From an uncultured Candidatus Binatia bacterium (GTDB lineage Bacteria > Desulfobacterota > Binatia > UBA9968 > JAJDTQ01), in the NCBI GenBank assembly GCA_965213675.1, contig OZ243916.1, positions 2,368,001-2,432,000 on the forward strand: a stretch of DNA of 64,000 bases. Direction: 5' to 3'. Shown here one piece after another: positions 30,329-54,727 of the stretch; positions within the stretch are counted from its first letter, which is position 1, and the number at the start of each line of letters is the position of its first letter. A program made the translations under genes and the position numbers. The notes beneath the pieces are model-generated. The model did not search any database and was not told the DNA's origin. It saw only the letters and a list, made by a program, of their open reading frames with translations.

Positions 30329-33300
30329 ATGAATCTCACCGCGCTTTGTCTTCGGCGTCCGGTGGCCACCTGCATGGCCGTCATGATCGTCATCATCCTC
30401 GGGGTGGTGTCCTTTCTCAAGATCCCGGTGGACCTCATGCCGGAGATCACCTTCCCCAGGGTCACCATCTCGACCAACTATGGCAACGTGGGACCGCTGG
30501 AGATGGAGACGCTGGTAACGGTGCCCGTGGAGAAGGCGGTGAGCTCCGTGGAAGGCGTGGAGGACATGAGCTCCGTGTCCGTCGAAGGCCGCAGCCAGGT
30601 CCGGGTGAGTTTCGGCTGGGACAAGGACCTGGAGGTGGCGGTGAGCGACGTGCGCGCGCGCATCGACCGCATCCGCGACGACCTGCCGCCGGGGGCGGAA
30701 GCCCCGGTGGTCTCGAAGTATGACGTCAATGCGTCGCCGATCATGTTCATCGGCGTGTCGGGACGCATGGACCCGGTGGCGCTCCGAACCTTCGTGGAGC
30801 AGGAGATTCGCTATCGCCTGGAACGGGTCGCCGGCGTGGCCGCGGCGGACATCCGCGGCGGATTGGAACGCGAAATCCACGTCCACCTGTCACTGGACCG
30901 GCTCAAGGCGTTCCAGCTCTCGGTGGATCAAGTGGTCCGGGCGTTGCGGGCGAGCAACATCAACCTGCCCGCCGGCAACCTCGGCCGCGCGCACCTGGAA
31001 GTATCGGTACGGACACTCGGCGAGTTCACCGACCTGGATCAATTGCGCAACACGGTGGTGGCCAACCGCGCGGGCACCCCCATCTACGTCAAGGACCTCG
31101 GGCAGGTGGAGGACTCCTTCAAGGACCTGGACCACACCGTGCGCATCGACGGCGCCCACGCCGTCGTGATCTCCCTGCGGCGTCAGCCTTCTGCCAACAC
31201 CATCGCGGTGGTGGACCGCGTCAAACAGGCCATCGAGGACATCAATCGGGAACTCCCCGCGGTTCGGGTCACCGTGCTGCGCGAGAATGCGCACTATATT
31301 CGCAACGCCGTGAACAACGTGACCCTGGCCGCGCTCTGGGGCGGCATGCTGGCCCTGGCCGTGCTGCTGTTCTTCCTGCGCAGCCTGCGCAGCACGGTGG
31401 TCATCGCCACCGCCATTCCCATCTCCATCGTTGCCACCTTCGCGCTGATGTATTTCCAGGGCTTCAGCATCAATATCATCTCGTTCGGCGGACTCGCCCT
31501 GGGCATCGGGCTTTTGCTGGACAATTCCGTGGTGGTGCTGGAGAACATCTTCCGGCACCACGAGAGCGGCGCCGACCGACGTGAGGCCGTGCTCAGGGGC
31601 ACCCGCGAGGTGGCGGGCGCCATCACCGCGTCCACGCTGACGACGGTGGTGGTGTTTCTGCCGCTGATCTTCGTACCCGGCTCCGCCGGCATCCTGTTCA
31701 AGCAACTTGCGTGGGTGGTGTTCTTCTCCCTCGCCGCCTCCCTGGCCGTGGCCCTCACCGTGGTTCCGGTGCTCGCGCACCATCTCCTGGGGCGGCCGGG
31801 CCATGCCGGGACCGGACGTTTCCTGTCGCGTCTCATGCGCGCGGGCTCAAGCTCCCAAACGGGGCTGGACAGCGCCTACCAGGGACTGTTGCGCTGGAGC
31901 CTGCGCCATCGCTTTACCGTGGTGACGGCCGCCGCGCTCCTGCTCGCCAGCAGCTTCTTCCTCTCCCAGGGCATCGACAGCGAGTTCATGCCCCGCGCCG
32001 ACGAAGGCAACGTGATCGTCATGGCCGAGACCGAGGCCGGGTCGAAGCTCGAGGAAACGGACCGCGCCTTCCAGCAAATCGAAGCCATCGTGCGCCAGGA
32101 GGTCACCGAGCCGCACAGGAACTTCACCCGCTTCGGCCAGTTCGGCTGGCGCGCCCGCGGCAAGAACAACGGGCGCGTATACGTGTGGCTGGGGCCCCGG
32201 GGAACCCGTGAGCGCTCCGATCAGGACATCGTCCAGGTCTTGCGCCGGCGGGTCGGCGAGGTACCCGGCGTGCGCGCCCGGGTGCGCGCCAGTTCCGGAC
32301 TGTGGATCTTCAGGCGCCTTGGGTTCAGCGACAGCGACAACCTGGACGTGAGCGTCCGCGGTCACGACCTGGGCCAGATCCAACGCGTGGCCCGCCAGGT
32401 GAAGGACGCCATGGAAGGGGTTGACGGGGTTGCGGGCGTGCGCATCAGCCGGCAGGCCGGTCAGCCCGAAATGGGAATCCACGTGGACCGGGAGCGGGCG
32501 GCGAGCCTGGGCATACCCGTGGAGACCATTGCCCGCGGCCTGCAAGCGAGCCTGGGCGGCGCCCGGGCGACCTTCTATCGCGAGGGCGGCAATGAATACA
32601 ACGTGCGCGTGCGCCTGAGCGGCGATGACCGCGCCGACCTGAGCGGCCTGCTGGATCAGAGCGTCTCCGACGGCTCGGGTCGGGTTCTGTCGCTCAAGAA
32701 CCTGGTCCGGCTGGAGGAACGCCGCGGACCGACGTCGATCCAGCGCCTCAACCAGGAACGCGTCGTGTCCATCTCGGGCGAGGTCGCGGGGCGTGACATG
32801 GCTGGCGCCGTAGCGGAGATTCAGACCGCGCTCGCACAAATCCCGCTGCCGCAAGGCATGGTCATCCACGTGGGCGGCGACTTCGAGGAGCAACAGAAGG
32901 CCTTTGGAGAACTGCGCATCGGCCTGCTCCTGGCCTTGATCATGGTCTACATGGTCATGGCGGGGCAGTTCGAGCGCTTGCTCGATCCACTGGTGATCAT
33001 GTTCGCGGTGCCGTTCGCCGCCATCGGCGTGCTCGCATCGCTTCACGTGACCGGCACGACCTTCAACGTCAATTCCTACATCGGCATCATCCTGCTGGTG
33101 GGCATCGTCGTGAACAACGCCATCGTGCTGGTGGATTACATCAACCTCAAGATGCGTGAGGAAGGCATGAGCGTGGTGGACGCCGTGGTCCTCGCCGGCC
33201 GCACCCGTCTCCGGCCGATCCTCATGACCACACTGACCACGGTGCTCGCGCTCGTGCCGCTGGCACTGGCGTGGGGCGAAGGCGGCGAGATTCAGGCGCC

Positions 33301-33463
33301 CATGGCGCGGGTGGTGATCGGCGGCCTGATCACCTCCATGCTGGTGACCCTGGTGCTGATTCCGGTGCTCTACGCCACGGTGCGGGAAAGGGTGTGGCGG
33401 AAGGCCCACGCCCGCGACCGAGCCCCAGCCGAACCCGGCGGCGCTGCAGCCGGACCGTTCTAG
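30329..33463 (+). CDS. RND efflux permease (AcrB/MdtC family)
   Basis: RRPVAT, LMPEI.FP, GLLLDNSVVVLENI, GIVVNNAIVLVD, RLRPILMTTLTT. Confidence 0.95.
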   Translation: MNLTALCLRRPVATCMAVMIVIILGVVSFLKIPVDLMPEITFPRVTISTNYGNVGPLEMETLVTVPVEKAVSSVEGVEDMSSVSVEGRSQVRVSFGWDKDLEVAVSDVRARIDRIRDDLPPGAEAPVVSKYDVNASPIMFIGVSGRMDPVALRTFVEQEIRYRLERVAGVAAADIRGGLEREIHVHLSLDRLKAFQLSVDQVVRALRASNINLPAGNLGRAHLEVSVRTLGEFTDLDQLRNTVVANRAGTPIYVKDLGQVEDSFKDLDHTVRIDGAHAVVISLRRQPSANTIAVVDRVKQAIEDINRELPAVRVTVLRENAHYIRNAVNNVTLAALWGGMLALAVLLFFLRSLRSTVVIATAIPISIVATFALMYFQGFSINIISFGGLALGIGLLLDNSVVVLENIFRHHESGADRREAVLRGTREVAGAITASTLTTVVVFLPLIFVPGSAGILFKQLAWVVFFSLAASLAVALTVVPVLAHHLLGRPGHAGTGRFLSRLMRAGSSSQTGLDSAYQGLLRWSLRHRFTVVTAAALLLASSFFLSQGIDSEFMPRADEGNVIVMAETEAGSKLEETDRAFQQIEAIVRQEVTEPHRNFTRFGQFGWRARGKNNGRVYVWLGPRGTRERSDQDIVQVLRRRVGEVPGVRARVRASSGLWIFRRLGFSDSDNLDVSVRGHDLGQIQRVARQVKDAMEGVDGVAGVRISRQAGQPEMGIHVDRERAASLGIPVETIARGLQASLGGARATFYREGGNEYNVRVRLSGDDRADLSGLLDQSVSDGSGRVLSLKNLVRLEERRGPTSIQRLNQERVVSISGEVAGRDMAGAVAEIQTALAQIPLPQGMVIHVGGDFEEQQKAFGELRIGLLLALIMVYMVMAGQFERLLDPLVIMFAVPFAAIGVLASLHVTGTTFNVNSYIGIILLVGIVVNNAIVLVDYINLKMREEGMSVVDAVVLAGRTRLRPILMTTLTTVLALVPLALAWGEGGEIQAPMARVVIGGLITSMLVTLVLIPVLYATVRERVWRKAHARDRAPAEPGGAAAGPF

Positions 33464-36400: not shown

Positions 36401-37530
36401 ACGGAGAAATCTCTCACGTCGCCGTACAGGACGGTGCCCAAAGGATCCCGCTCTATGATCTCACTGCGGGCTGTTCCGCAATGGGCGGCAAGCCAGGCGG
36501 CCAAGCCGCGAAATGCCGAAACAATTTGACCATCATCGCCGGTCAACAAGGCAAGCACCCGTCGTACCGGGAGACCATCATCGACAAGACGCGAAAGGTG
36601 CCGCCCCGCCAGAAACTCGGCGACGTGCCTGTGGACGGGTCTGGCCAATCCGTCGATGACGTCGAATAGCTTGGTGCGCAGCGCGGCCAGCATAGTCTTC
36701 TGGTCTGGTTCCGGAATGTCCCGCAAGTCGATGTAACTGGCGGAATCCTCGGCAGTCATGGGTTGACGAAAACCCGTCAGGCCGGTCAGCAGTTGCATGG
36801 CGCACAGACGGTCTGCCGTGCGAAGCAACTCTGAATCGGCTCCTTGGGGAACCGCCTGCAGGTGCTCTTGATTGAGTTCGCGGATCAGTTTTACGCACGC
36901 TGCTTCGAATGTCCCTTTTCGCGTTGCTGGCCAGTTGCCATCGCCGACCGCATCCGCCAGCAACCTCAGGGTTTCAGGGTTCGACAGCAGCCCTCCAAGC
37001 CCGCGGTCCCTCGCTTCGTCAATGAAGCCGTCGATATCTGCGACGCCTTTCCCACCCAATATCTCGCGGACGTCATCTTCTGACAGAGGATCCAGGCGCA
37101 GGACCATGACCACGCCGTCGCGGGATACCGACTCAAGGCGCGTCCGGTCTGGCGCTCCGAACCAGTCCGCTTCCCGACAAGAGAGCCGGAACCGGGGCCG
37201 TCCCAGTCCGTCGAGTTTCCCTCGGATCACGTCAAGCGGAGTTCGCCCGTCTGTCTGTCCAGCCCGCGCCTCGTCCAGGCCGTCGATGAACAGCGTCTGC
37301 AGGCCCGCCCAGCGCTTGCAGTCCAGGCTCGTGAGGTCGCGAACGTCGCAAAACTCTTGCTGTCCGGCCTCGTGCTTGAACGCTTCTGTCTTGCCTGCGC
37401 CAGGCGCTGCCAACAGTACGTAGGCGCTGCAACCGCGAAAATCGGAAAGTGGCCGGGACAGGGTTTGACCTGTGACGCCGTCCTGATCCGCAACTACCGT
37501 ACAGGTGCGGTCAACGTAGCTGTCCATCAC
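33460..37530 (-). CDS. NACHT/STAND-like NTPase with C-terminal PD-(D/E)xK-like nuclease domain
   Basis: VLLAAPGAGKT (Walker A), LFIDGLDE (Walker B), RLSCR, HRHVAEFLAG; C-terminal E..CRD...RADI...EIK. Confidence 0.72.
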   Translation of the reverse strand: MMDSYVDRTCTVVADQDGVTGQTLSRPLSDFRGCSAYVLLAAPGAGKTEAFKHEAGQQEFCDVRDLTSLDCKRWAGLQTLFIDGLDEARAGQTDGRTPLDVIRGKLDGLGRPRFRLSCREADWFGAPDRTRLESVSRDGVVMVLRLDPLSEDDVREILGGKGVADIDGFIDEARDRGLGGLLSNPETLRLLADAVGDGNWPATRKGTFEAACVKLIRELNQEHLQAVPQGADSELLRTADRLCAMQLLTGLTGFRQPMTAEDSASYIDLRDIPEPDQKTMLAALRTKLFDVIDGLARPVHRHVAEFLAGRHLSRLVDDGLPVRRVLALLTGDDGQIVSAFRGLAAWLAAHCGTARSEIIERDPLGTVLYGDVRDFSVSDKRLLLSCLEQDAERDPRVFGAMHDLDSRWADLATPDMAETFREILTGAEGSMGKQTVALAVLRSLERGAIIPGLAPMLLDVVRDGGCWPAVRDAALEAFVWQSRNDDEAQENLKALLADVYEGVVPDPLDNLLGLLLKRLFPKLLPPAEVGRFLRERKSAVFASYAAFWNHDIIEQSTDSHQLADVLDSLIENVEELGETHDGAPASYWLRTIPGKLLVAYLEISSTVDHERLFVWLGLAAEEASHDARASIRAWLSDHSSSYKALVRVAADHSAGSHQLGDEVRRRLFLAVEPSDFGAWCLSQALETERNTAAATEFFLDNVIARQDGERIFCEVVEDRLAHDPSLVAKYKALQESRRRSISDIESEQSELEQRREAEAGQRRREWRDLVEDHESAIRENRAAPALLHRLASAYLGQFVDVQGADGRTRLRDLLGNDDLVDLTIHAFRASTARADLPEMAEIFRLADKQEHHFLMLPFLAGLDEIPSLRPGKAPLDEQGMRRALAFRFKAPDFWNQEPKWYRSVLRSRPDLVAEVLIRSVRADLRRGAKSGLGLHALGHDDDYQTVAEMVVVPLLKSFPTRQKLEQLHVLKALLHVASRHADKNALLRIVENKLKLQSMDASQEMYWICAGLLLKPALFVDRLRQELGGRGCERRVRHVAAFLYALDVPSLDVLDIPALELLIESLGNSYRPLSWPGNGSGMTGNTAAKDSAYTGVIVDSLLINALSSRPDRQATAALERLSNEDTLRPWQLKLRDALSRQRDVRREAYFSPPSVGQVLETLANQRPANAADLAALTADVLGSLEREIRDGNTSDWRQYWNVDSYNRAQDPKPEDACRDALLSDLKQRLAPKGVYAQPEGAYADDKRADICVLCNGFNVPAEIKKSSHDDLWKAIRGQLIEKYTRDSGAAGYGIYLVFWFGRDRCKRPPTGPAPETPSALRNQLIAVANLSPEERRKISVCVIDVSKPDSIAKAIG

Positions 37531-38783
37531 GTCTTGAACCAGTCGTCTGCCGGAGTCGACAGGAACTCTTCCAACGGCACGCCGTCGCCGCCGACCACCT
37601 CGGCGTTCACTGGATGAAATTGCTCGCGGAAGCGTTGAAGCCCTCGGCGGTCAGCAGGCCCCTCACCACTCTTGACCTCGAACGCCACCAACCGCGGCCC
37701 TCTTTCAAGCACGAAGTCCACCTCGGAGCCGTTTCGCCGCCAGTACCAGAGGCGAGTCAGCGTGGTCGCGGTGTTCCACAGGTGGGCGCCGACGGCGCTC
37801 TCGACCAGATGTCCCCAGAACGTTCGGTCCGCACGGGCTTCTTCGAACGTGTAACGGGAGAGGGCTGACATCAGGGCGGTGTTGAGCACGTTGAGCTTCG
37901 GGCTGGAAGCCTTGTATCGATCGATTCCAGCACTGTAGTTTTGCAAGCCTGCGATGAGACCCGCCTTTTCCAGCAGGTCCAGATAGCGCGCCAGGGTTGT
38001 GGTGTTGCCTGCATCCTGAAGTTGACCCTGTATTTTCCTGTAGGACAGAATTTGCCCGGAGGATGTGGCACCGACCTCGAACAGCCGTTTCATCAACGCG
38101 GGCTTGTCCACTCGTTGCATAGCAAGGATGTCGCGCTCGATATTGGGCTCTATAAGTCCGCGCACAATATACTCGTGCCAGCGATCATGATCGTGCATGT
38201 ATTCCACCGCACCCGGATAGCCGCCGAAGTAGACATATTCATCCACGTCCAAGCCGAACGCCTCCGACATTTCGGTGAAGGACCAGTGCTTGAGTTGAAT
38301 GGACTCGAAGCGTCCATGCAAGCTCTCGGTCAGACCACGCTGCATCAACAGTGGCGCCGAGCCTGACAGGATTACATGCAAACGGCGTCGCTCGTAGCGG
38401 TCTGCATCCCAGAGGCCTTTTACGGCTTCCGACCAGTTCGGCACCTTCTGAATTTCGTCCAGCGCCAGCACATACCCTCGCTCCGACCGGTCGGCGTCCA
38501 GTCGGGCCTTTTCCCACAAGTCCACGAGCCATCTCGTGTCGGGTTCTCGTGGCACCGGGTTTGTGGCCGTCGTATCGAGCGCTGTTGCTGTGGTGGGCAA
38601 GTATCTCGATCCGGGCTCATCCACGCGTACGAGCAGAAGGGCGCGGTCGAGCTTTTCCTTGGCCTGTTCAATCACCGTGGTCTTGCCAGCTTGTCGTGGC
38701 CCGGCGATCAGGATCAACCGCCGCGGAGGCTCGTGCAAACGGCCGAGAAGAGTGTCAAGCTGGTGCCGTGCAAAGGATGCCAT
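37527..38783 (-). CDS. AAA_14 ATPase with DUF4143 domain
   Basis: GPRQAGKTT, LDEIQK, SGSA, ESLHGR, GGYP, ESAVG, WRRNGSEVDFV, FEVKSG. Confidence 0.9.
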   Translation of the reverse strand: MASFARHQLDTLLGRLHEPPRRLILIAGPRQAGKTTVIEQAKEKLDRALLLVRVDEPGSRYLPTTATALDTTATNPVPREPDTRWLVDLWEKARLDADRSERGYVLALDEIQKVPNWSEAVKGLWDADRYERRRLHVILSGSAPLLMQRGLTESLHGRFESIQLKHWSFTEMSEAFGLDVDEYVYFGGYPGAVEYMHDHDRWHEYIVRGLIEPNIERDILAMQRVDKPALMKRLFEVGATSSGQILSYRKIQGQLQDAGNTTTLARYLDLLEKAGLIAGLQNYSAGIDRYKASSPKLNVLNTALMSALSRYTFEEARADRTFWGHLVESAVGAHLWNTATTLTRLWYWRRNGSEVDFVLERGPRLVAFEVKSGEGPADRRGLQRFREQFHPVNAEVVGGDGVPLEEFLSTPADDWFKT

Positions 38784-38791
38784 TCTACAAT

Positions 38792-38827
38792 ACTATTCTA
38801 TTGAGCAAATTTGCTCAATAGAATAGT
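38792..38827. promoter_or_regulatory. Perfect 36-bp AT-rich palindrome directly upstream of the AAA ATPase start
   Basis: ACTATTCTATTGAGCAAA|TTTGCTCAATAGAATAGT. Confidence 0.75.
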
Positions 38828-39263
38828 CCGAGCCACTGGATTGTATGTTTGATCCTAGTTGAAACCGGGAACCGGCCGAAACGTACCGGTCGGCTGGGCC
38901 TGATGGTCTCGCCGGGTAGCGGCCGAGAACAACCGCTATGGCAGGAAACGTTAACAGAGCCCGAAATCACGCTCCATGCTCTTCGGTTCCAGATTGTATG
39001 GGCGGTGAGGCGGGTGTAACGGGACGCCGCGGCCGGCGGCGACGCGGTGGGCCGCAACACCCTGTAGCCACGGCTGGCGGCGCTGCGGCCGGCGGTTCCG
39101 TAGCGGTCGATACCGGCTTGCCGTCGTCGCGAGGATGCAAACACGCGCGTATTGAATTTCCACCGGACTCGGCGTAATGTACGCCAAACGCGACAGGCAA
39201 TGACCGGCAGAGGTATGGGCAGCGCGGGCCAGCGGGTCGGGCGACAGCTTCGGAGGCGATGCG

Positions 39264-42200
39264 ATGGTCATGGTGAACGAAGGACGAGATGGGAACCGGG
39301 CGTTGGGCAGGAGGCATGGGGAGATAGCGGGGCGCGCGGAAAATAGTTTGGCTCAGGACTTGACAAGGCCTGAGTCAACCCATAATCGCCGGATCGCCGG
39401 ATCGCCGGATCGCCGGATCGCCGGATCGCCGGATCGCCGGATCGCCGGATCGCCGGATCGCCGGATCGCCGGATCGCCGGATCGCCGGATCGCCGGATCG
39501 CCGGATCGCCGGATCGCCGGATCGCCGGATCGCCGGATCGCCGGATCGCCGGATCGCCGGATCGCCGGATCGCCGGATCGCCGGATCGCCGGATCGCCGG
39601 ATCGCCGGATCGCCGGATCGCCGGATCGCCGGATCGCCGGATCGCGCTTGGTGCGTCTTCATGGTGGCGCCGTCTAGGGCGCTCCGCCTCCCGGCCTGAA
39701 TCTTCCGCATCCGCCCGCGGGCGTTCCGACACCCGCCGGCCCGCTTCCTCTTCCGACAGCTTCGCTCCCTCTCCCGCCCGCGCCGCGGCGGGCGCCCGTG
39801 CCGCCGCCCGCAATCTGCGGCGTGGCCTGCTGCCGGCCCTGCTTTGCCTGCCGCTGCTGTTCGGCCTTGCCGCCCCGGCCGCCGCACAGACGACACCGAC
39901 AATCTCCCCATCGACGCTGATCGAGGAAGGGAGCCGCGGTCGTCTCGGGATCGGTGTGACTATCAGCAATATCCCGTCGAGTTGGGTTGCTCCCATTACG
40001 CACTCGCTGACGACGACCGGCACCGGCACCGGTCACGCGACGCTCGCCTCAGGCGTTTGCCGCGATGTAGACACCTTAAATACCTCGTTAGACGCCTACG
40101 ACGTATGCGACGACGAAGGCACAGGCTACAGCTCGGGCTCGAACCTCTACACTCTCGCACTTAGGGCGAGCATCGATACTCACTCGGATTCGGGCGAGAC
40201 CTTCACGGTGACGCTGACGGACTCGTCGACGCCGCGGAATACCGTTTCGTTCACAATGACGATCAACGATCCGCCGGTGAGGATCGGGGTGTCGCTGCCC
40301 GACCAGGAGGGCGTATCCCGCGTCGGCGGCAATCAGCCCCATGAGGAGAGCACGGGCAGCGTTGTGTTCGACCTGAGCGCCGACGAGCCGCTGGCGAACG
40401 ATCTGACGGTGTGCGTGCGGGTGAGCGAGAGCGGCGGCAACCGGGTGACCTCGGGCAGGGGTATCCGGACCGCGACCCTGCTGGCCAGCGGCGTCAGCAA
40501 CGGGTCGGGCAGCTACACGGTCAACTGGACCGACACCGCCGCCGACGACCCGGACAGCACCGTCATCGTCCGGGTAGTGCCGCCGGAGGAGGCGGGCTGC
40601 TCGGCGACCGACGGCAGCTACGGGGTATCCGGTGACGACCCCTTGGATACGATTCTCATCCAGGACGACGAGGACACCACGGTCTCGCTCACGAGTTCGG
40701 ACAGGACCATGACCGAGGGCGACGCCTCGGACACGGCGACCCTGACGGTCTCGCTGGATCGCCGGCTTTATGGCGGAGAGACAATCGGCGTGCCGATCGC
40801 GCTGGCGTCGACCACCGGGGCGCGGCTGCCGGGGAGCGTGGACGGCGGCAGCACCGCCAACCACGACTTCACGGTCGCGGCCGCGGCCGGGAGCGGGCAC
40901 AGCGGGGTGACGCTGGCGAACGCATCGACGGCCAACCCGCGGGTGGTCTTCACCGGCCACGACAGCAACACGGTGCAGACGGCGACGGTAACGCTGACCC
41001 CGGTGGCGAACCGCGACGACGGCGACGCGGCCCATGAGACGATCACCGCGACGCTGAGCTCGCTCGGCCTGGTTGACACGACGGTAAGCGGCGGCGTGGC
41101 GGCGCATGGGACGAACAACGCGGCGACCCTGACGCTGGCGGACGACGAGGCCGCGCCGCCGCCGGTGACATGCTCCGCCCAGAACCCCATCTTCAATGAT
41201 ACCAGCCTTCGCATCCTCGAGACCGGCGAAACGACCTATTGCGTGCGCCTGACGACCGCCCCGTCCGGCGGTGACACCACCGTCACCATCGGCAGGATTG
41301 GCGGGGGCGCGACCGTCAGTCCCGCGTCGCTCACGTTCACGTCATCGAATTACGAAACACCCCAGCAGGTAACGGTGACCGGCATGGATGAGCCCGGTTC
41401 GCATCGGAATCGCACGACGCAGTTGACCCACACGGCCAGCGGCGGCGGCTATTCGAGCCAGAACCTGGGCCGTGTCCGGGTAGAGGTGGACGACGCGCCC
41501 GAGGTCGAGGCGTATTGGTACATCAAGGGCGGCGCGGGCGGCGTGCGGATCCGGCGACCGCATACGATAACGTCAACGCCCGGGCTGACGCCGTGGCAGA
41601 ACGCGGCACCCGGCGACAGGATATCCTATGCCGTGCGCCTGTCGAACCGCCCGGAGCCGGGCGGCACGGTGACCGTGATGGCGACGGTGCCTTCGGACAA
41701 GCGGAACCTCGTCGGCCTGTCGCTGACCAAGGACCGCGCCGCGCAAGACACGGTGACGGTGGAGTTCAAGGACCGCAGTCCCGGCGCAGGCACGGGCTGC
41801 AGCAACTGGTTCGGCCATCAAGCGCATCAATACTTCGACAGCCACGGCAACACGCGGACAGTGTCGGGCCGGCAGCCGAGCGAGAGCTACGACGGCACGG
41901 CGGACACGCCCTGGGAGTGCTGGCGCATGATTTATGTGGTCCGCAAGGACGCCTCGCGGAACATCGACGACACCTGCGCCGACATCACCCACACCGCCAC
42001 AGGCGGCGGCGTGCGCAAGGTCACGGTCGATACGATCCGCGCCCATGTAAGGAACCCGTCGCGCAACAGGCGGGGGTCAAGCGGTTACAACACCCAATGC
42101 CGCAACCTGACCGGCAACACGCAAGCGGCACCCGCGACGGCCGCCCCGGCGCCCACCGAGGCGGTGGCCAACCTGCAGGTGACGGCGGTGGACGACGCCA

Positions 42201-45200
42201 GCGCCAGCGTCACCTGGGACGCGGTGGAGCATGCCACCTCCTATGACGTGTCGTGGAGTGCCGAGAGCGGCGACTCGCTGAACGCTTCCGCCGGTGACTT
42301 GCCCGGCGTGACAGGCACCACGACCACCATCGACCACGGCGCCTCGGTGCCGATGACACTGACGGTCACGGTGACGCCGGAATATGTCGACAAGAACGGC
42401 GACACGCAGCAATTGGACAGCCTCGCCGGCACGGCAACCCTGGCGGTAGGGCCGGGCAGCGACGCGCTGAGCGCCAGCGCGCAGAGCACCGACAGCCAGG
42501 CGCCGGCCTGCGTCTCCGACGCCCTGCTGGCCGACGCCCGGAAGGCTGCGGGCGAGACCTGGCGGACGTCGCCGGGCCATGTCGAGCGCTGGAGCCGGGT
42601 GCTTGCCGCCTTCGGGGAGAGCAACGCCTGGAGCAACAACCCGATGACCATCGCCGAGGCGCAGGCGCAGGCGGACCGCGGCCTGAAGCGCTGGGCGCCG
42701 GTGGCGCCGGCGCTGGAATGCCTGGAGAAGGAGCCGGCGCAGGCGAAGGCGCAAGTAGAGGCGCAACAGGCGGTTCCCGCGATCACCGTAACCGCGGGAG
42801 CGGGGGTGACGGAAGGCACGGCGGCGGGCTTCACGCTCAAGGCCGATCCGGCGCCGGCGGAAGAACTCGCGGTGACGGTGGCGGTGGCCCAGACCGGCGC
42901 CATCGCGGATGCCTCGGCGCTCGGCGAGCGCATTGTGACGATCCCGGCCGGGAAGGCGGAGGCGGCCTTCACGGTGGCGACGCTGGCCGATGAGACCGAC
43001 GAGCCGGCGGGCGCCGTCACGGCGACGGTGAGCGACGGCCCCGGCTATACGGTGGACGACCAGGGCAAGAGCGCAAGCGTGGCGGTGGCGGACGACGACG
43101 CCACCGCGGTAGTGCTGACGGCGCCGGATGGCGACCTGCCCGAGGCGTCGGGCTCCAAGACGCTGACGCTGACGCTCGGGCGGGCGCTGGTGGAGGGCGA
43201 GAGCCTGTCGGTGCCGCTGGCGCTTGCCGGCACGGCCACGCTCGGCTCCGACTACACGCTGGCCGCGCCGGAGACGGCGCCCGCGGGCGTGACCTATACC
43301 CACCTTGGCGGTACCGACCCGAAGAACCCGCCGGAGGTGACCTTCGCCGGCGCCGCGGGGCGCAAGTCGGCGACAGCGGCGACGCTGGTGCTGGCGACGG
43401 TGGCGGACAGCGTGGCCGAGGGCGAGCGGGAGACGGTGACGGTGAAGCCGGGCACGCCGGTCGCCACCGGCCTCGGCGGCGGGGCGGCGGCCTCGGGCGC
43501 GGCCGGCTTCGCCATCCTGGAGCCGCCGCCGGAGATCGCGATCGCGGCGAAGACCGGGACCGTGGCAGAGGGCGCGGATGCCGCCTTCACCCTGACCGCG
43601 AGCCGGGCCCCCGGCGCGGACCTGACGGTCAACCTCACGGTCTCGGAGCCAGACGGCAGCGACTTCGTGGCAGCCGAGCATGAAGGGACCACCACGGCGA
43701 CCATGCCGAAGGGGGAGACCGAGGCCACCTTTACGGTGCCGACGGTGAACGATGTGGCGGACGAGCCCGGCGGGACGGTGACCGCGACCCTTGCCGGGGA
43801 CGGCGACAAGGGACTGCGCTACACGGTGGCAGCGGCGCCGGACAATGCGGCCTCCGTGAAGGTGACCGACGACGATGCGGCGGCGACAGCCCCCACCTTC
43901 TCGGTGGGCGACGAGACCGCCAACGAGGATGTCGGGTTGATGTATTTCACGGTGCGGCTCGACCGGGCCGTGCAGCAGGCGGTGAAGGTGACCTTCACGG
44001 CGCGCGAGGCGAGCCCGGTCTCGGCCCGGCAGGGCGAGGACTGGTTCTGGTGGTGGCCGAACGGCATCGCGCTCACCTTCCATCCGGGCCAGACCGAGAA
44101 GCGGATGTGGGTCTACGTCTACAACGACAATCACGACGAGGACCCGGAGACCTTCGAGGTGGCGCTGTCGAACCCGACGGGGGGCACGGCCATCGGCGAC
44201 GGGGTTGCGGTGGGCACCATCGTCAACAACGACCCGATGCCCAAGGCGTGGCTGAGCCGGTTCGGCCGCACGGTGGCGCAGCAGGCGCTGGACGGCATCG
44301 CGAGCCGGATGAGGGCGCCGCGGGAGGCGGGCGTGCAGGGCACCCTGGCGGGACAGGCGCTGCCGGACGGCAGCACCGCTTCCCAGGAAACCGGGTCCGG
44401 CCCGGGATGGCAGACCGCGGCCCATGACCACGCGGCGCCCGGAGCCCGGGCCACGGGCTTTACCGGCGGCGTCCAGGACGGCGCCGAGCCAGGGACCGCT
44501 TCAACATGGAGAGCCCTGAGCTTGCGGGAACTCATGCTCCAGAGCCGCTTCACCGCCACCGGCGGCAAGGACGCCAAGGGCGGCAGCCTGGCCTTCTGGG
44601 GGCGGGCCGCGCAGGCGCACTTCGACGGCAGGGAGGGAACCTTCTCCCTTGACGGCGACACCACCACCGGCATGCTCGGGGCGGACTACGCCCGGAACCG
44701 CTGGATGGCCGGCCTCGCCCTCACCCACAGCGAGGGGGAGGGCGCCTATGCGGACACGGACACGGCCCCTGAACCCTGCGCCGAAGCCGGCGCGGACCAC
44801 ATGAGCGACGATGCCAGTAAGGTTCTGTGCGAAGGCGCCGTGCGCGAGGGCGACGGCAGCCTCGACGCCTCGCTGACCGCGGCCATACCCTACGCCTCTT
44901 TCCAGGCCACCGAGCGGCTGAAGCTCTGGGGCGCGGCAGGCTACGGCGCCGGCGCGGTGACCCTCAAGCCGGAGGTCGGCGGCGTGTTCAAGTCGGACGT
45001 TTCCTGGACCATGGCGGCGTTGGGCTTCCGTGGGAACCTGTGGCCCCCGCAGAAGCAACGCTCCGGGCCGGCGCTGGCGCTTGAGTCGGACGCGCTCTGG
45101 GCGCGCACCTCTTCGGAGAAGACCCGGGACCTCGCGGCCTCGGACTCCGATGTGACCCGGCTCAGGCTCGGTCTGGAGGGAAGCTGGAAGATCGCCCTGG

Positions 45201-45790
45201 ACCAAAACGGCCATCTGACGCCCAGGCTCGAAGTGGGCGCGCGCCATGACGGCGGCGATGCCGAGACCGGCACGGGCATCGAACTCGGCGGCGGCATTGC
45301 CTGGAGCGACCCCGCCCTGGGCCTCCGCCTCGATGTCGAGGGCCGCACCCTGCTGGCCCACGGGTCCGATGATCTGGAGGACCGGGGCTTTGCCGCCTCC
45401 CTCGCCTACAACCCCGACCCGGCAACCACTCTCGGCCCCTCCCTGACTCTTCGTCAGGACTGGGGCGGACAGGCCAAAGGCGGCATCGACGCCCTGTTCG
45501 CCCCCGACCCCCTGGACACCCGCGGCGGCGCGGGCGGTACCGCCGAGAGCCGCTGGCTGGCCGAAGCCGCCTACGGCTTCCCGGTCCTCGACCGCCGCTT
45601 CGCCGCCAGCCCCCATCTAGGCTTCGGCTTCGCCGCCGGCACCCGCGACTACAGCCTGGGCTGGCGCTTCAACCCCCTGGCACGCAACAACGCCCCCGAT
45701 CTCCAACTCGGCCTAAACGCCACCCGAAGGGACGCCGCCCACTCAAAACCCGAACACATCCTCCGCTTCAAGGTCGCCCTCAACTGGTGA
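39264..45790 (+). CDS. Giant Calx-beta/FN3-like surface protein with C-terminal autotransporter-like beta-barrel; frameshifted at an octamer repeat in this assembly
   Basis: ATG 39264 with GGAGG RBS; leader homologous to the paralog start at 54727. The body frame is open from 39386 to 45790 and includes the signal peptide LRRGLLPALLCLPLLFGLAAPAAA/Q. Calx-beta-like repeats, RHDGGDAETG, terminal W. Confidence 0.8.
39385..39645 (+). repeat. Simple sequence repeat (ATCGCCGG)x32 plus ATCGC
   Basis: Counted directly: 39385-39640 is 256 nt, i.e. 32 perfect units. Confidence 0.97.
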
Positions 45791-45908
45791 CCTCCAAAAT
45801 GGCTTGGCACCCGCAACGCGTCCCGTCGGACTTGGCTGCGAGCACCCCGTGTTCGTGCGGCTACGGCCATTGAGGCGCTGTCGGTCAGGTCGATCACCTC
45901 CACGTCCA
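45701..45908 (+). repeat. Direct repeat copy 1 (3' end of surface-protein gene plus downstream DNA)
   Basis: Matches 55570-55758 (CTCCAACTCGGCCT...TTCAAGGTCGCCCTCAACTGGTGACCTC...GGTCGATCACCTCCACGTCCA). Confidence 0.9.
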
Positions 45909-48934: not shown

Positions 48935-51900
48935 TCACCACCGCGCGTTGACTTCGAACCCGACGCTGTGCTCCGGCATGGCCGTGTCGCTCTCCCTGCG
49001 GGTCGCCTTCAGCCCGAAGGAGACATCGGGCGCGTTGGCGTTCGCCGCCGTGGTAAGGCGCCAGCCGAGGCTGTAGTCCCGCGCATCGGTGGCGAGGCCC
49101 AGCCCCATATGCGGGCTGCCGGTGAAGCGCCCCGAGAAGGCCGGGAAGCCCCAGGCCGCTTCCGCCGTCCAGCGGGAGGCGGCCTCCCCTCCGCCCATCC
49201 GGTCCGCCAGCGGGTCGGACGCGAACAGCGCGTCGAGCCCGCCCTTGGCCTGTCCGCCCCAGTCCTGGGTCAGCGTCAGCGAGGGACCGCGCGCGGTCGC
49301 CGGGTCGGGATCGAAGGCCAGCGAGGCCGCGAAGCCCCGATCCTCCAGATCGTCCGAGCCGTGCGCGACCAGCGTGCGGCCCGACAGGTCGAGCGACAGG
49401 CCGAGCGCCGGATCGACCCAGGCGAGCCCGCCGCCGAGTTCCACCCCGAAGCCGGTCTCGGCATCGCCCCCGTCGTGGCGCGCGCCTATTTCCAGCTTGG
49501 GTGTGAGACTGCCCCCGCCCTCGGTGGCGATGCGCCAGCTCCCCTCCAGGCCGAGCCGGAGACGGGTCACGTCGGACTCCGACGCCGCAAGCTCGTGCGT
49601 CTTCTCCGAGCTCGTCCGCGCCCACAAGGCATCCGAGGTCAGCGCCAGCGCAAGGCCGCTCCCTTCCCTCGACAGGGAAACAAGGTCGTTGCGAACCCCC
49701 GCCGCCGCCATCGTCCAGGCGATGTCGGAGCTGAGCGAGCCGCCCACCTCCGGCTTCAGCGTGACCTCGCCGGTGCCATGGCCCGCCGCGCCCCAGAGCT
49801 TCAGATGCTCGGACGCCTGGATCGCGGCATAGGGAACCGCCGCCGTCAGCGACGCATCCACCTTGCCGTCGCCTTCGCGGACGGCGCCGGCGCACAGATG
49901 CGCCATCGTGGCGGGGTCCATGCCCTCGCCAACATCCGGACAGTGCTGCGGCCCCGATTCCCTGTCGGCATAGCCGCCTTCCCCGCTGCTCCGCATCAGC
50001 GCCATGCCGACCAGCCAGTTGCCGCGCGCATAGTCCGCGCCCAGCATCGCCGAGGTCGCCTCGCCGTCGAGCGAGAACGTCCCCTCCCGTCCGTCGAAGC
50101 TCGACTGCGCCGCCCGGCCCCAGAAGGCCAGGCTGCCGCCCATGCCGTCCTTCTCCCCGGTCGCCGTGAAGCTGCTGCCCAGCAGAGCCTCGAGCCCGGT
50201 CATGGTGTACGAGCCCGCGCCGCCTGCCCCGGACACCGATCCGGTGGCGAAGCCATGAGCGTCATGGCCGATCGCGCCGCCGCCCCAACCGTCGGCGGAA
50301 GCGCCGAAGGCGCGGGCCACGTGGGAGCGTGCCGGCACGTCCTTGCCGGCAAGGCTGCCTGGTGCGGCATTGTCGTTCGCCGCCCCGGACCCGTCAGGGC
50401 TGCCGAAGCCGAGCGCCTGTCCGGCGATCGTGCCCTGCACCCCGGCGCCGCGCGAGGCCGCGATGCGCCCGGCTATGCCGTCCAGCGCCTGCTCCGCCGC
50501 CGTGCGACCGAAGCGCGCCAGCCACGCCGCCGGCATCGGGTCCGAGTTGGTGATGGTGCCCACCGCGACCCCGTCCGCAATCGATACCGACACCCCGGGC
50601 GGACCGTTCACGGCCGCGTCGAACAGCACCATCTCGAAGGTCTCCGGACCCTCGTCATGGCTGTCGTTGTAGAGGCGGACGTGGATCAGCGTTTCCGTCT
50701 GCCCCGGCCTGAACCGGGCCCGCAGCCGCCAGGACCGCTTCCACGCCAGGTAGTCCTGGCCCGCCACGGCCGACACCGGCGTCGAATCCCGCGTCGCGTA
50801 GTAGACATGGACCGGCCAGTCCACCGGCTCGCTCAACGTCACCTTGAAATTCCCCGTTATTCCGTTCTCCTTGAGCGTGGCATCGGCAATCGAGATCGTC
50901 GGACCCGAGGACGCCGCATCGTTGTCGGACACCGCCACCGTGGCCGCATTGTCCGGGGCGGCGGCCAGTGTGTAGCCGGCGCCAATGCCCAGGGTGGCGG
51001 TGATCGAGCCGTCCGGCTCGTCCGCGCCGTCGTCCACCGTGGCGACCTCCACGTCCACGCTGCCTGTGACCGGGACGGTGACCGTCCTCGACCCGGTCTC
51101 GCCCGAGGCGGCGAAATCGCCGCTCTGGCCGACGGTCAGCGTTACGTCGAGCGGTGCGACCGGCACCGGGCTCGCCGAGACCGTGAAGGAGGCCGACGTG
51201 CCTTCCGTCACCCCGCTGCCGGCGGCGATGCTCACCACCGGCTCGTCATTGTCGCGCACCGCCACCGCGGCGCTGCCCTTGCCCGTGGCCACGGTGTAGC
51301 CCGTGCCCGTGCCGAGGGTGACGCTCACCGACCCATCGGCCTCGTCCGCTGTGTCGTCCACCGTGGCCACCGAGAGTGCGACGCTGGTAGCCCCTGCTGC
51401 CAGTGTCACCGTCCGGCTGCCCGCGCCGGGGGCGTCCAGATACTCGCCGCTCTGGGCGACGGTCCAGGCAATCGTCAGGTCGGAATGCGGCGCCGGATCG
51501 GCCGTGACCGTGAAGGTGGCATTGCCGCCCTCGTCCACGGCGGAGCCCGCCGAAAGGCTGAGTTCGGGCGTGGCGGGTGTTACCGGCTGGACCTCAGCCT
51601 GTTCCGGCTGTTCCTCCTGCGGCGGGTTCGCCAGGCATTCCAGCGCCGGCGGCACGGGCGCCCAGCGCTTGAGGCCGCGATCCGCCTGCGCCCGCGCCTC
51701 GGCGACAGTCATCGGGTTGTTGCTGTAGGCGTTGCTCACCCCGAAGGCGGCAAGCACCCGGCTCCAGCGCTCGACATGGCCCGGCGAAGTCCGCCAGGTC
51801 TCGCTCGCAGCCGCCTGGGCGTCGGCAAGCAGGGCGTCGGAGACGCAGGCCGGAGCCTGGCTGTCGGCGCCTTGCGCGCTGGCGCTCAGCGCGTCGCCGC

Positions 51901-54727
51901 CCGGCCCCACGGCAAGCGTCGCCGTGGCGGCCAGCGCGTCGAGTTGCTGCACCGCGCCATTGCCGTCGATGTATTCCGGCGTCACCGTGACCGTCAGCGT
52001 CATCGCTTCTTGCGCATCATGCCGGATGGTGGCCGTAGTGCCGGTCACGCTCTCGACGCCGGAAACGGCGGTCTCGGAGCCGTTGGCATCCCATGACACG
52101 TCATAGGAGGTGGCATGTGCCACCGCGTCCCAGGTGGCGCTGGCGCTGGCGTCGTCCACCGCCGTCACCTGCAGGTTGGAGACCGCCGTGTCGGGCGCCT
52201 GGACCGCCGGCGCGTTGTTGCCCACGGGGCATAGCCCGTTATTGATCCGCACGCATTTGCTGCCCGGAGCCAGCCGGAACGGACGGCCGGTGGCCGTCAC
52301 CTTGAAGGTCACCGTGCCCGCCCCGGCGTCGTGCCGGATACTGATGGGCACCGTGAACTCGGAAAAGCCCCTATTAAGTGACTTGTAGCCCGACTTGCCC
52401 AGACCCTGCCTGCGGTTGTCATCGACCACCCCGCCGGTGTCCTCGACCTCCCACTTGACGTAGAGGCCGGTCGGCAGGGCGCCATTGACCGAAGTGATCG
52501 TGAATATCGCGCGGTACCGGCGGTCGCGCTTCGACGTGTCGTCATACCCCGACACCTTCAGAACGGGCAGGTCGTCCTTGATGGTGATGACCGTGCTGAT
52601 GGTCTCGTTGGCAATGCGGGTCGAGTCCGGAATCTCCAGCAGGGCCGTGGTCTCCTTGCCCGACACGGTGCTCCGCTGCAGCCGGATTTTCACCGACTCG
52701 TCCGGCTCGTCGCTGCTGCCGTCGTCGAACAGCGTCAGATCGAGGTAGGTGCCGAGTTGCCCCTTCGGCAGCGTCGCGGGGTGGCAGCCCGTCGTCGTGA
52801 CCTTCGTGCCGTCCTGGCCGACCAGCGTGTAGTCGTCGCCAAGCGTCGCCGAACCGCTCACACAGTACTCGAAATGCGCATCGACCTGCAGCGGCCGGTT
52901 GGGTATCGAGGAATGCGCAGGGGCCAGAGCGATCTTGATCCTGCGCCCGCTATCGACCCCGTCCCTCAGCACCGTCCCGCTCTCGTCGACCTTGAGCAGG
53001 GGCGTCGCTTCGTCGTCCTGGATGTATATCGTGATCCGGTTCGGCGAGCCCACCGCGTGGGTGCCCGTGCCCACCATCTCCAGGACCACCGTCTCGGTTC
53101 CCTCGATCAGTGTGTCCTCGATGACCGTGATCGGCAGCGACGCAAGCGTCTTCCCCTTCGCCAGCGTCATCGTGCCCCGGTTGTTGTTCCGGTTGTAGCC
53201 GCCGCGCAGGCGGTAGTCGGTGCCGTAGGTCGCCGTGCTCCCCCCGTCCTCATTCCCGGGTACCACCTGGTAGGTTACCGTGTTATCCCAGCCAGCCTGC
53301 GCCGAGAACGGGATGCCGACATCCTGATCGAGGGACGGTCTGCCTTCTCTCACGCCCGGTTTGCCGGCCCAGGTGCCGAAGGCAAGCGGCTGCTGGTGAT
53401 AATCGTCGTCATCGATCACCAGGGTCTGGCTTCTGAACACGCTGTCGATCCCGTAGGGTGAAGGGAGCGGCTTTACCGGGTTCGGATTCAGGGTGATTCT
53501 GACCGTTTCCTGCCCCGATATAACCAGCCGCTCCTGGCCGTCGATCCACATCGGCACCTGCTCGTGGTGGTTGTCGCCAAGCACCTGGATGCGGAACCTC
53601 TTCAGTTGCTGGTTGGCGGCGATGGACGAGTCGACGCAGCCACTGTTTCTGGTCTGCCAGGCGCTCCCCACCCGTTCCTGTATCAGATAATCGTCTTGCT
53701 CGGCATTGCCGCCGGTGCGTCGCCTGGCACTGCCGGAGAAGCACAGGCGGAAAGGCAGGGGAGACGAAGAGAGCTGTTCGGTCTTGACCTGGAACTCCAC
53801 ATTCTTCGGCGCTGAATCCGTCTCCTTCACGCATGTGTACGTTTTACTGCTGCCTCCACCAACAGAGCAGGTATCCTTGCCCCGGTCCAGCGAGAGCGAG
53901 AGAAACTGGTTTGCGGCCTTGATCGTGAATGTGGCGGAGAGGTCTGGAGGGAATGTGGCGTCGTTAATCTGCCCAAACCGAAGCAAGCCACTCCGAGTGC
54001 CTCCGGCGACAGTCACCGTCACCGGATCATCTGCCCTGATTAGCGAGCCGTGGTAAGCGAGGGTGATCTGCGCGGAGCGATGACTAAGGCTTCTGCCATG
54101 GGGGTGACCCGGCCGCTCTCGCCGGAGCAGCTTGCCGCTTGCGATCGTCAATCCCCGAGGGGCGCCCGACAATGTGATCAGGGCAAGACCTGCTGCGCTC
54201 AACCTGGCTTCGCCGTCCCTGAAGGGGATGGCTCCCTGGTCGTCCGGGTGAATATACTTCTGTCTGAAGGAGTCGGAGAGTTCAGTGGTACCGCCGCGGC
54301 CAGCTCCAAAAAACGTGGCGTTTTTCGGAATCAGTGTGATCGTTGCCCCGTGCAGAAAATGTGCCTGTATCTCGGTGGGAATGGTCTCCAGGTACGGCGC
54401 AGTCTGTGCCTGTGCACCAGTGGCGAGACTGAGCAGCACAGCGGCGAGACTGAACCGCAAATGGTGGATGGCAAAGAAATCCGCCAAAGCGCGGGCGGGA
54501 GACAGGCTGGAGCCGCCGGTGGCAGAAGGCTCAGGCCGGGAGGCTGGGTGCCCCGGGCGGCCAGCCATGCGAGCGCGCTCATGCCGGCGATCCGGCGATA
54601 TACCAAGGGGAGTCCCCTCAACCCTTGTCAACCCCTGCGCGAAACAATTTTTCGCGCGCCCGGCGGTGGCCGCAAGCGCTGCGCCCAGCGCGCGGATCGC
54701 ATGTTGTCCTTCCTTGAATATGGTCAT
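48935..54727 (-). CDS. Giant Calx-beta/FN3-like surface protein with autotransporter-like barrel (intact paralog)
   Basis: Start MTIFKEG (GGAG RBS); extended leader then signal peptide LRFSLAAVLLSLATGAQA/Q; Calx-beta repeats; RHDGGDAETG; ends NARW. Confidence 0.85.
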   Translation of the reverse strand: MTIFKEGQHAIRALGAALAATAGRAKNCFAQGLTRVEGTPLGISPDRRHERARMAGRPGHPASRPEPSATGGSSLSPARALADFFAIHHLRFSLAAVLLSLATGAQAQTAPYLETIPTEIQAHFLHGATITLIPKNATFFGAGRGGTTELSDSFRQKYIHPDDQGAIPFRDGEARLSAAGLALITLSGAPRGLTIASGKLLRRERPGHPHGRSLSHRSAQITLAYHGSLIRADDPVTVTVAGGTRSGLLRFGQINDATFPPDLSATFTIKAANQFLSLSLDRGKDTCSVGGGSSKTYTCVKETDSAPKNVEFQVKTEQLSSSPLPFRLCFSGSARRRTGGNAEQDDYLIQERVGSAWQTRNSGCVDSSIAANQQLKRFRIQVLGDNHHEQVPMWIDGQERLVISGQETVRITLNPNPVKPLPSPYGIDSVFRSQTLVIDDDDYHQQPLAFGTWAGKPGVREGRPSLDQDVGIPFSAQAGWDNTVTYQVVPGNEDGGSTATYGTDYRLRGGYNRNNNRGTMTLAKGKTLASLPITVIEDTLIEGTETVVLEMVGTGTHAVGSPNRITIYIQDDEATPLLKVDESGTVLRDGVDSGRRIKIALAPAHSSIPNRPLQVDAHFEYCVSGSATLGDDYTLVGQDGTKVTTTGCHPATLPKGQLGTYLDLTLFDDGSSDEPDESVKIRLQRSTVSGKETTALLEIPDSTRIANETISTVITIKDDLPVLKVSGYDDTSKRDRRYRAIFTITSVNGALPTGLYVKWEVEDTGGVVDDNRRQGLGKSGYKSLNRGFSEFTVPISIRHDAGAGTVTFKVTATGRPFRLAPGSKCVRINNGLCPVGNNAPAVQAPDTAVSNLQVTAVDDASASATWDAVAHATSYDVSWDANGSETAVSGVESVTGTTATIRHDAQEAMTLTVTVTPEYIDGNGAVQQLDALAATATLAVGPGGDALSASAQGADSQAPACVSDALLADAQAAASETWRTSPGHVERWSRVLAAFGVSNAYSNNPMTVAEARAQADRGLKRWAPVPPALECLANPPQEEQPEQAEVQPVTPATPELSLSAGSAVDEGGNATFTVTADPAPHSDLTIAWTVAQSGEYLDAPGAGSRTVTLAAGATSVALSVATVDDTADEADGSVSVTLGTGTGYTVATGKGSAAVAVRDNDEPVVSIAAGSGVTEGTSASFTVSASPVPVAPLDVTLTVGQSGDFAASGETGSRTVTVPVTGSVDVEVATVDDGADEPDGSITATLGIGAGYTLAAAPDNAATVAVSDNDAASSGPTISIADATLKENGITGNFKVTLSEPVDWPVHVYYATRDSTPVSAVAGQDYLAWKRSWRLRARFRPGQTETLIHVRLYNDSHDEGPETFEMVLFDAAVNGPPGVSVSIADGVAVGTITNSDPMPAAWLARFGRTAAEQALDGIAGRIAASRGAGVQGTIAGQALGFGSPDGSGAANDNAAPGSLAGKDVPARSHVARAFGASADGWGGGAIGHDAHGFATGSVSGAGGAGSYTMTGLEALLGSSFTATGEKDGMGGSLAFWGRAAQSSFDGREGTFSLDGEATSAMLGADYARGNWLVGMALMRSSGEGGYADRESGPQHCPDVGEGMDPATMAHLCAGAVREGDGKVDASLTAAVPYAAIQASEHLKLWGAAGHGTGEVTLKPEVGGSLSSDIAWTMAAAGVRNDLVSLSREGSGLALALTSDALWARTSSEKTHELAASESDVTRLRLGLEGSWRIATEGGGSLTPKLEIGARHDGGDAETGFGVELGGGLAWVDPALGLSLDLSGRTLVAHGSDDLEDRGFAASLAFDPDPATARGPSLTLTQDWGGQAKGGLDALFASDPLADRMGGGEAASRWTAEAAWGFPAFSGRFTGSPHMGLGLATDARDYSLGWRLTTAANANAPDVSFGLKATRRESDTAMPEHSVGFEVNARW

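Follow-up and report, generated by a model that had tools for sequence, protein, structure and literature searches.

How can a giant surface protein be produced from a reading frame that holds no start codon ahead of its signal peptide? This question is raised by an autotransporter gene on a stretch of 64,000 nt (the window) of contig OZ243916.1, positions 2,368,001 to 2,432,000 of the forward strand, from an uncultured Candidatus Binatia bacterium. The frame encoding the body of the protein is open for 2,134 codons from position 39386, and its first ATG, GTG or TTG is the GTG at 39956, which lies past the signal peptide. An initial annotation of this DNA had predicted that standard gene calling would report a signal-less gene of 1,944 aa, and a GTG open reading frame (ORF) of that length was found. 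A short leader ORF precedes the body. It starts at ATG 39264, 7 nt downstream of a GGAGG sequence, begins MVMVNEGRDG...LTR, crosses 32 copies of the octamer ATCGCCGG and stops at 39677, as seen from the translation and from Tandem Repeats Finder (period 8, 32.6 copies, 100% matches and a score of 522 at 39385-39645). Among the 51 tandem-repeat rows for the window, no other array comes near it in strength. The GACAGnTTCGGAG...ATG context of the leader start is kept at paralogous and related loci.

As 8 is not divisible by 3, each unit gained or lost shifts the phase between leader and body. With the leader in frame 0 and the body in frame 2 (39386-39264=122), tracts of 31, 28 or 34 units join the two frames by simple arithmetic. 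A convergent paralog in the window, which starts MTIFKEGQHAIRALG..., is identical to the leader at 17 of 35 residues (counted by hand). It carries two octamer units at 54584-54599 and forms one continuous frame from the ATG through to the signal peptide. The initial annotation had described all of these elements, including the two frames, the joining unit numbers and the in-frame paralog, and each was reproduced here.

We consider it fairly probable that the locus is a slipped-strand contingency switch acting on translation. Initiation would occur at ATG 39264 behind a good Shine-Dalgarno (SD) sequence, and ribosomes would read the leader, the repeat peptide (IAGSPDRR)n and then a linker. Only an in-phase tract (31, 28 or 34 units) would let them reach the signal peptide and the Calx-beta autotransporter of ~1,970 residues, and with the 32 units of the assembly translation would end at TAG 39677, leaving the gene OFF. 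Because the repeat peptide precedes the signal-peptidase site, tract length would leave the mature protein unchanged. We infer slippage within the population, export with a long N-terminal extension and selection for switching. The body is intact, with 1,992 uninterrupted codons from the signal peptide to 45790; at 66% GC and a G+C content at third codon positions (GC3) of 0.88, so many open codons indicate that it is still under selection.

The initial annotation had proposed a genome-wide search for other genes with the same leader, with their repeat units, copy numbers and frames tabulated; a genome-wide repeat scan revealed further loci with several units, copy numbers and frames. A perfect-repeat scan covered the whole genome (G000; 4.53 Mb in 21 contigs, with contig C1 of 3.97 Mb at 65.7% GC) and returned at least five long tracts built from three different units. 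The octamer ATCGCCGG is repeated 45 times at C1:800358-800722 and 11 times at C1:3050133-3050225, a different octamer, GTCGAGCC, eight times at C1:1134042-1134108, and the pentamer AGCCG 31 times at C1:3713837-3713992. Each of these four arrays separates a short leader from the signal peptide encoded by a giant ORF. Of the corresponding genes, those at the three other octamer loci belong to the same autotransporter family, a membership that we claim for the octamer loci only and not for the gene with the AGCCG array. Further hypermutable tracts in the genome include a C22 run at C1:399035-399056 and, in the C1:1382040 region, a three-unit AGCCG remnant behind a GGGTTGACAA motif.

The copy with 45 units (a800k) is a recent duplicate of the gene. 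Identity to the locus is 85% for 38991-39877, which covers the upstream region, leader and signal peptide, and 93.8% for 5.46 kb of the body. The two regions (38991-45808 and C1:793286-801116) form a mosaic, in which identity rises to 99% in the 260 nt ahead of the tract and the first ~0.5-1.4 kb of the passenger are unrelated. The unrelated segment suggests cassette exchange between paralogs. The duplicate is in phase at its tract; its body shifts frame 512 codons in (C1:799307), beside a short duplicated stretch, which marks either a pseudogene or an assembly error.

The same layout of leader, repeat, linker and signal peptide was found at no fewer than 26 loci from about 12 genomes, with 6-45 units per tract: 19 repeat-bearing loci in five genomes and seven more from a scan of a genome collection. 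Copies of the locus gene itself differ in unit number, with 32.6 units here, 21.6 in G012, a genome of the same genus, and 13.6 at locus L069. Searching with the C-terminal domain yielded 21 5′ ends of family members, 20 from three other chromosome-level genomes and one from G012. Arrays were present in 12 of these 21, namely ATCGCCGG in 7-29 copies, ATTGCCGG in 11 copies and AGCCG in 9 and 19 copies. An exact-pattern scan (TATAAT followed by three units) of 185,579 species genomes produced 16 loci in nine records labelled Alphaproteobacteria, Rhodospirillales, Rhodobacter, Arenicellales, Nitrospira and Gemmatimonadota. Seven of the 16 were new and had readable downstream sequence, and an eighth new one, L084, ends 7 nt past the tract. 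The Nitrospira and Gemmatimonadota records are short contigs of binned genomes. L084, L087 and L088 (labels Nitrospira, Arenicellales and Gemmatimonadota) share an identical box-repeat junction, which also occurs in Alphaproteobacteria; such distant labels could mean either that the module has spread horizontally or that contigs were mis-binned, and two of the three are short contigs. Beyond G000 and G012, the repeat pattern was found in none of the 28 genus genomes and 123 order genomes, many of which are so fragmented that this absence means little.

Comparison of these loci supports a frame switch. From the upstream in-frame stop as far as the core of the signal peptide, no canonical start is present in seven of ten out-of-phase loci with ATCGCCGG or ATTGCCGG units, the present locus included; the open frames of the other six measure at least 1,858 aa. 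These long ORFs are therefore untranslatable as they stand. In-phase counterparts exist: the leader ATG is in frame and open to the signal peptide at five of 21 octamer loci (L056 with 8 units, L074 with 9, a800k with 45, par2 with 2 and L090 with 14). Repeat-less relatives, namely G022, the 2943k locus together with its G012 ortholog and the 2590k locus, are in frame from the leader ATG. In anatomy, in tract polymorphism and in the occurrence of both phases, the locus conforms to translational phase variation mediated by a simple sequence repeat (SSR): a perfect repeat with a unit that is not a multiple of 3 (8 or 5 nt at the related loci) lies within an ORF between the start and the functional part, tract length differs between close alleles, and both phases occur, with out-of-phase bodies that are otherwise intact.

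Public protein sets lend independent support, as they contain the products expected from both phases. With the 137-aa out-of-phase product as query, 75 short proteins scored at E<=1e-3 among 8,000 candidates. The 37 that were read consist mostly of the leader (with an LT...II context in most), (IAGSPDRR)n and one of a few recurring out-of-frame tails, and one leader type is paired with many tract lengths. One of the two out-of-phase product types has a tail that corresponds to a short frame ATG...TGA at 39661-39699 (MVAPSRALRLPA followed by the stop). Sister loci retain this frame, two of them starting it with GTG instead of ATG, and it ends in a conserved CCTCCCGGCCTGA. Among longer proteins the same query had 20 matches. 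In the 14 inspected, leader and repeat are followed by a hydrophobic signal-like segment, either directly (P0079) or via a linker, and most run on to an autotransporter-type C-terminus. P0084 represents an in-frame close relative of the locus gene, with 80% identity over 334 aa including linker, signal peptide and N-terminus. P0080 and P0091 are 94% identical, and within the alignment shown their length difference of 48 aa (18 units) falls entirely in the tract. These sequences show rapid change of tract length among near-identical alleles, and they include in-phase forms; as such forms appear as long proteins by construction, their number is no measure of selection. One further protein, P0005, labelled Burkholderia mayonis, consists largely of VAGSPGRR/ITGSPDHR repeats, so that a related GC-rich octamer tract is present in a cultured genus.

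The count of 32 units, and with it the present OFF state, is taken from one metagenome assembly. A collapsed or expanded count in the 261-nt perfect repeat, with the real locus fixed in frame, would mimic a switch. Perfect repeats are hard to assemble, and the four sequencing runs compared with 39606-41600 consist of Logan contigs of 36-330 nt, none of which spans the tract. High word depth over the repeat bin reflects only the many repeat copies. We nevertheless judge misassembly to be a highly improbable explanation. Of 21 loci assembled independently, 16 have an out-of-phase tract, both types of out-of-frame product occur frequently among public proteins, and the chromosome contig reaches 3.97 Mb. 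One RNA run contributed ten contigs, eight of which are only 90-95% alike to the locus and probably originate from a relative rather than from the locus itself.

Out-of-phase tracts might also mean that the start has been lost and that the gene is decaying or silent, with the long tract as a neutral by-product of slippage and without adaptive switching. The preponderance of out-of-frame loci, the frameshift 512 codons into the body of the in-phase sister a800k and the restriction of very long tracts (32 and 45 units) to this genome would all be expected in that case. The state of the body makes decay quite unlikely, since it has retained 1,992 open codons at 66% GC with a GC3 of 0.88. Moreover, public data contain many full-length, in-frame alleles of related genes, and meningococcal autB genes are likewise reported to be intact but mostly out of phase (PMC5118866).

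Further support for a translated leader came from the phase of its start codon. A frame-blind search for an SD-like site plus ATG upstream of the TTGACA hexamer that lies near the tract (see below) placed the ATG in phase with TTGACA at 16 of 18 loci. At further loci, an in-phase SD and ATG were present in all seven that had any candidate, and two more had none. The ATG-TTGACA distances fall into 11 classes that are multiples of 3 (60, 63, 66, 72, 78, 87, 96, 108, 114, 123 and 150 nt) and one that is not (109 nt), the latter being an orthologous pair without box or repeat. With random phase, one in three length classes would be expected to be a multiple of 3, and although the classes are not fully independent, such a pattern appears very unlikely to have arisen by chance.

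Coordinates and properties of the features at the locus and of its paralog within the window
Feature	Position	Strand	Details
Shine-Dalgarno-like GGAGG	39252..39256	+	7 nt upstream of leader ATG 39264; read from the sequence
Leader ORF, present out-of-phase state	39264..39677	+	137 aa: 40 unique codons, (IAGSPDRR)n, short tail, TAG 39675-39677
Conserved box	39360..39386	+	TTGACA 39360-39365 (Leu-Thr), 15-nt spacer, CATAAT 39381-39386 overlapping the first repeat unit
Perfect (ATCGCCGG)32.6 simple sequence repeat	39385..39645	+	stop-free in all frames
Ser/Ala/Pro/Arg-rich linker	39646..39814	+	body frame open; other frames end at TAG 39675-39677 and TGA 39697-39699
Putative Sec-type signal peptide LRRGLLPALLCLPLLFGLAAPAAA, cleavage before QTT	39815..39886	+	RR n-region, hydrophobic core, AAA/Q site; first codon CTG; assigned by eye
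Mature autotransporter and stop codon	39887..45790	+	passenger with Calx-beta, C-terminal beta-barrel
Calx-beta domain	43886-44191	+	E = 8.9e-9
Autotransporter beta-domain PF03797	44594-45274	+	E = 5.6e-11; 43.1 bits, cut-off 26; residues 53-279 of the last 450 aa
Convergent paralog	48935..54727	-	same leader type; box TTGACA 54631-54626; 2 octamer units 54584-54599

The encoded protein has the C-terminal beta-domain (PF03797) of a type Va autotransporter, and a search of the whole protein against NCBIfam gave nothing useful. The n-h-c pattern and AAA/Q site of the putative Sec signal peptide were recognized by eye and by a simple hydrophobicity rule, and this signal is N-terminal only if the leader is counted in. 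Type V secreted proteins can carry an extended signal peptide region (ESPR), an N-terminal extension ahead of the classical signal peptide. Unlike an ESPR, the extension described here is several times longer and holds a repeat, and no Pfam family matched the leader or the first 116 aa of the paralog at E<=5. The initial annotation had named an internal start at CTG 39815, used whatever the tract length, as an observation that would overturn a switch. This candidate was rejected, as the closest copies (G012 and another locus) have CCG at that position. Immediately ahead of the Arg-Arg in the signal-peptide n-region, 11 of 12 loci with at least seven units have a CTG or CCG codon, and all four loci with at most two units have TTG or ATG. 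The occurrence of CTG or CCG where repeats are long speaks against CTG 39815 as a tract-independent start.

The most unexpected element is a conserved box at the border of the tract. The initial annotation included neither this box nor the much larger gene family nor the post-repeat ATG of some lineages. Most related loci have the form TTGACA-N23-TATAAT, in which the last two bases of TATAAT begin the first repeat unit. The spacer measures 23 nt in 11 of the 16 box-bearing loci of a first set; in a further set, which includes L064 and L084, it measures 23 nt in seven of nine loci and 20 nt in two. Both hexamers are perfect at related loci while the spacer sequence varies, and these loci stand under very different taxonomic labels. 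Within the leader frame the hexamers make use of TTG, ACA and ATA, each of which accounts for only 7-8% of its own codon family in four window genes. Because the hexamers are kept in rare codons, the DNA or RNA sequence of the box must, on this comparison, itself be under selection. A normal sigma-70 promoter appears not to be the explanation, because near-consensus hexamer pairs in the genome peak at 16-18 nt, the two perfect pairs both have 18 nt, and the 15- or 23-nt spacing of the box lies outside this range. Consistently, a consensus sigma-70 scan of 38800-40000 found no plus-strand promoter.

The box is the first of several observations that weigh against a simple frame switch, as it points to a DNA- or RNA-level function that such a switch does not explain. 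The in-frame share of five in 21 loci equals the random-phase expectation, which fits a neutral switch and equally the absence of any constraint. A post-repeat ATG (ATGAGY) in frame with the signal peptide is found in a3050k, G022, L077, L086-L088 and L090. L064 combines a leader-repeat ORF that runs into a stop in every frame with a gene that starts from a separate SD and ATG ~205 nt further on, and at a1134k, the GTCGAGCC locus, the leader frame meets a TGA before the tract. Codon use in the leader is atypical, with a GC3 of 0.65 compared with 0.70 in the linker and 0.88 in the body. Leader substitutions showed no codon-position bias (four groups together gave 17, 15 and 14 variable columns at positions 1, 2 and 3), shifted-frame controls looked alike, and counts of synonymous and non-synonymous changes in the leader gave no coding signal. 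Openness of the linker is not significant at 70-79% GC, since a given frame stayed open in shuffled sequences with a probability of 0.41-0.79; the open linker as evidence for coding was dropped after this shuffle test. A pre-signal extension of 90-180 aa is, to our knowledge, far longer than known extended signal peptides. Finally, all tract lengths were taken from metagenome assemblies.

These observations raise the question of whether the repeat acts at the level of the transcript or as an upstream ORF (uORF) rather than as a simple ON/OFF frame switch. In one form of this explanation the box is an internal promoter or a sigma-70 pause site and the tract forms the mRNA 5′ end, as in Haemophilus influenzae hmw; in another, leader and repeat constitute a regulatory uORF whose stop position, differing among the three phases, tunes initiation at the main ORF. 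The perfect hexamers with their fixed 23-nt (or 20-nt) spacer across distant labels despite a varied spacer sequence, their rare codons, the ATGAGY kept in several lineages, the placement of the module at L064 ahead of a gene that has a separate SD and ATG, and the lack of amino-acid-level selection in the leader would be accounted for. There is a precedent in hmw1A, where the repeat is transcribed in the 5′ untranslated region (UTR) and sets the expression level (PMC12721329). We nonetheless regard a transcript-level or uORF role at the present locus as unlikely. A 23-nt spacer is no working sigma-70 spacing in view of the 16-18 nt peak of the genome, and the consensus scan of the region lacked a plus-strand promoter. 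An hmw-type promoter or 5′ UTR rheostat finds no counterpart here, as no ATG, GTG or TTG follows the tract in the body frame ahead of the signal-peptide core at the locus and six others, and the CTG is replaced by CCG in the closest copies. In addition, 11 of the 12 length classes hold the leader ATG and the box in a common phase, a constraint that would be needless for a pure promoter, and at L067 the start ATG lies upstream of TATAAT.

The post-repeat ATG has been lost at the locus and its nearest relatives, where a frame switch is the only visible route to the protein. Overall, the proposal of a frame switch is supported by the start-less loci, by the in-frame loci and proteins and by the differences in tract length between close alleles. 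In at least some lineages the module may act at the transcript level or as a uORF, in view of the box, the post-repeat ATG, L064 and a1134k.

A more far-reaching possibility, which we put forward tentatively and hold to be somewhat unlikely, is that the leader ORF, the TTGACA-N23/20-TATAAT box, the GC-rich repeat and the linker together make up a portable switch cassette with a DNA-level box and three expression states. Unrelated uncultured lineages (labels Alphaproteobacteria, Arenicellales, Rhodobacter, Nitrospira and Gemmatimonadota) may have such a cassette in common, in part through horizontal transfer. Its box may act in internal transcription initiation, in sigma-70 pausing or in the targeting of slippage, and the three states may be a fused long pre-protein, a uORF that stops early and a uORF that stops late, over a second start. 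If true, this would be a new design of contingency locus that goes beyond a plain frame switch.

Repeat-driven stochastic ON/OFF switching of surface proteins is textbook knowledge for a few human pathogens and has seldom been described in uncultured, probably host-associated bacteria of the environment. Neisseria opa genes, a multi-copy surface family in which each copy is switched independently, carry a CTCTT pentamer in the region coding for the signal peptide. They resemble the loci described here in that a multi-copy family of surface proteins has a repeat within the coding sequence, and this repeat is lost when the leader is cleaved off. The small beta-barrels of the Opa type have a repeat that encodes the hydrophobic core of the signal, whereas the octamers encode a hydrophilic spacer ahead of that core. 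Opa and autA/autB of Neisseria meningitidis are the closest known systems. The autA and autB autotransporters have AAGC repeats in their 5′ coding region, with most intact genes out of phase (PMC5118866). In both cases a slipped-strand repeat in the 5′ coding region of an autotransporter lies ahead of the signal-peptidase site and the frame sets ON or OFF. The tetramer of autA/autB resides in a signal sequence of normal length, cleaved after residue 30, and N. meningitidis is a commensal and pathogen of humans. In contrast, the loci reported here have GC-rich octamers in up to 45 copies within a pre-signal extension of 90-180 aa, belong to a multi-gene family of uncultured bacteria and show a conserved TTGACA/TATAAT box at the tract border.

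H. influenzae hmw1A and hmw2A likewise have a many-copy repeat of 7-8 nt ahead of a very large adhesin gene. Their heptamer ATCTTTC repeat region is transcribed (PMC12721329); the repeat is placed in the 5′ UTR, upstream of the start, and expression is graded via an RNA hairpin and RNase III. For the hmw genes of biogroup aegyptius, the octamer GCATCATC is documented in 12-15 copies (PMC3309571). The tract described here differs in being located downstream of an SD and ATG, with no start after it. Lav of nontypeable H. influenzae is an autotransporter with GCAA repeats whose tract length determines ON or OFF (PMC9022572). Lav differs in that one gene only is concerned, its unit is a tetramer and the bacterium is human-associated.

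Two neighbours of the locus in the window, an AAA_14/DUF4143 ATPase gene (37527-38783, minus strand) and an AcrB-family pump gene (30329-33463, plus strand), have nothing that ties either of them to the switch.

What is new at these loci is that the repeat lies in a long pre-signal leader, that the GC-rich octamers reach 45 units, that several different units occupy the same site within one gene family, and that a conserved box and an uncultured setting come with them. In the limited library searched, no paper describing loci of this kind for symbionts or metagenome-assembled genomes came up. Standard gene calling is expected to report these genes as truncated, signal-less proteins and as orphan repeat peptides, of which 75 are present in public sets. 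The bacteria concerned are probably host-associated, and a family of giant autotransporters equipped with such switches, together with dozens of related loci in other genomes, would imply clonal variation of their surface.

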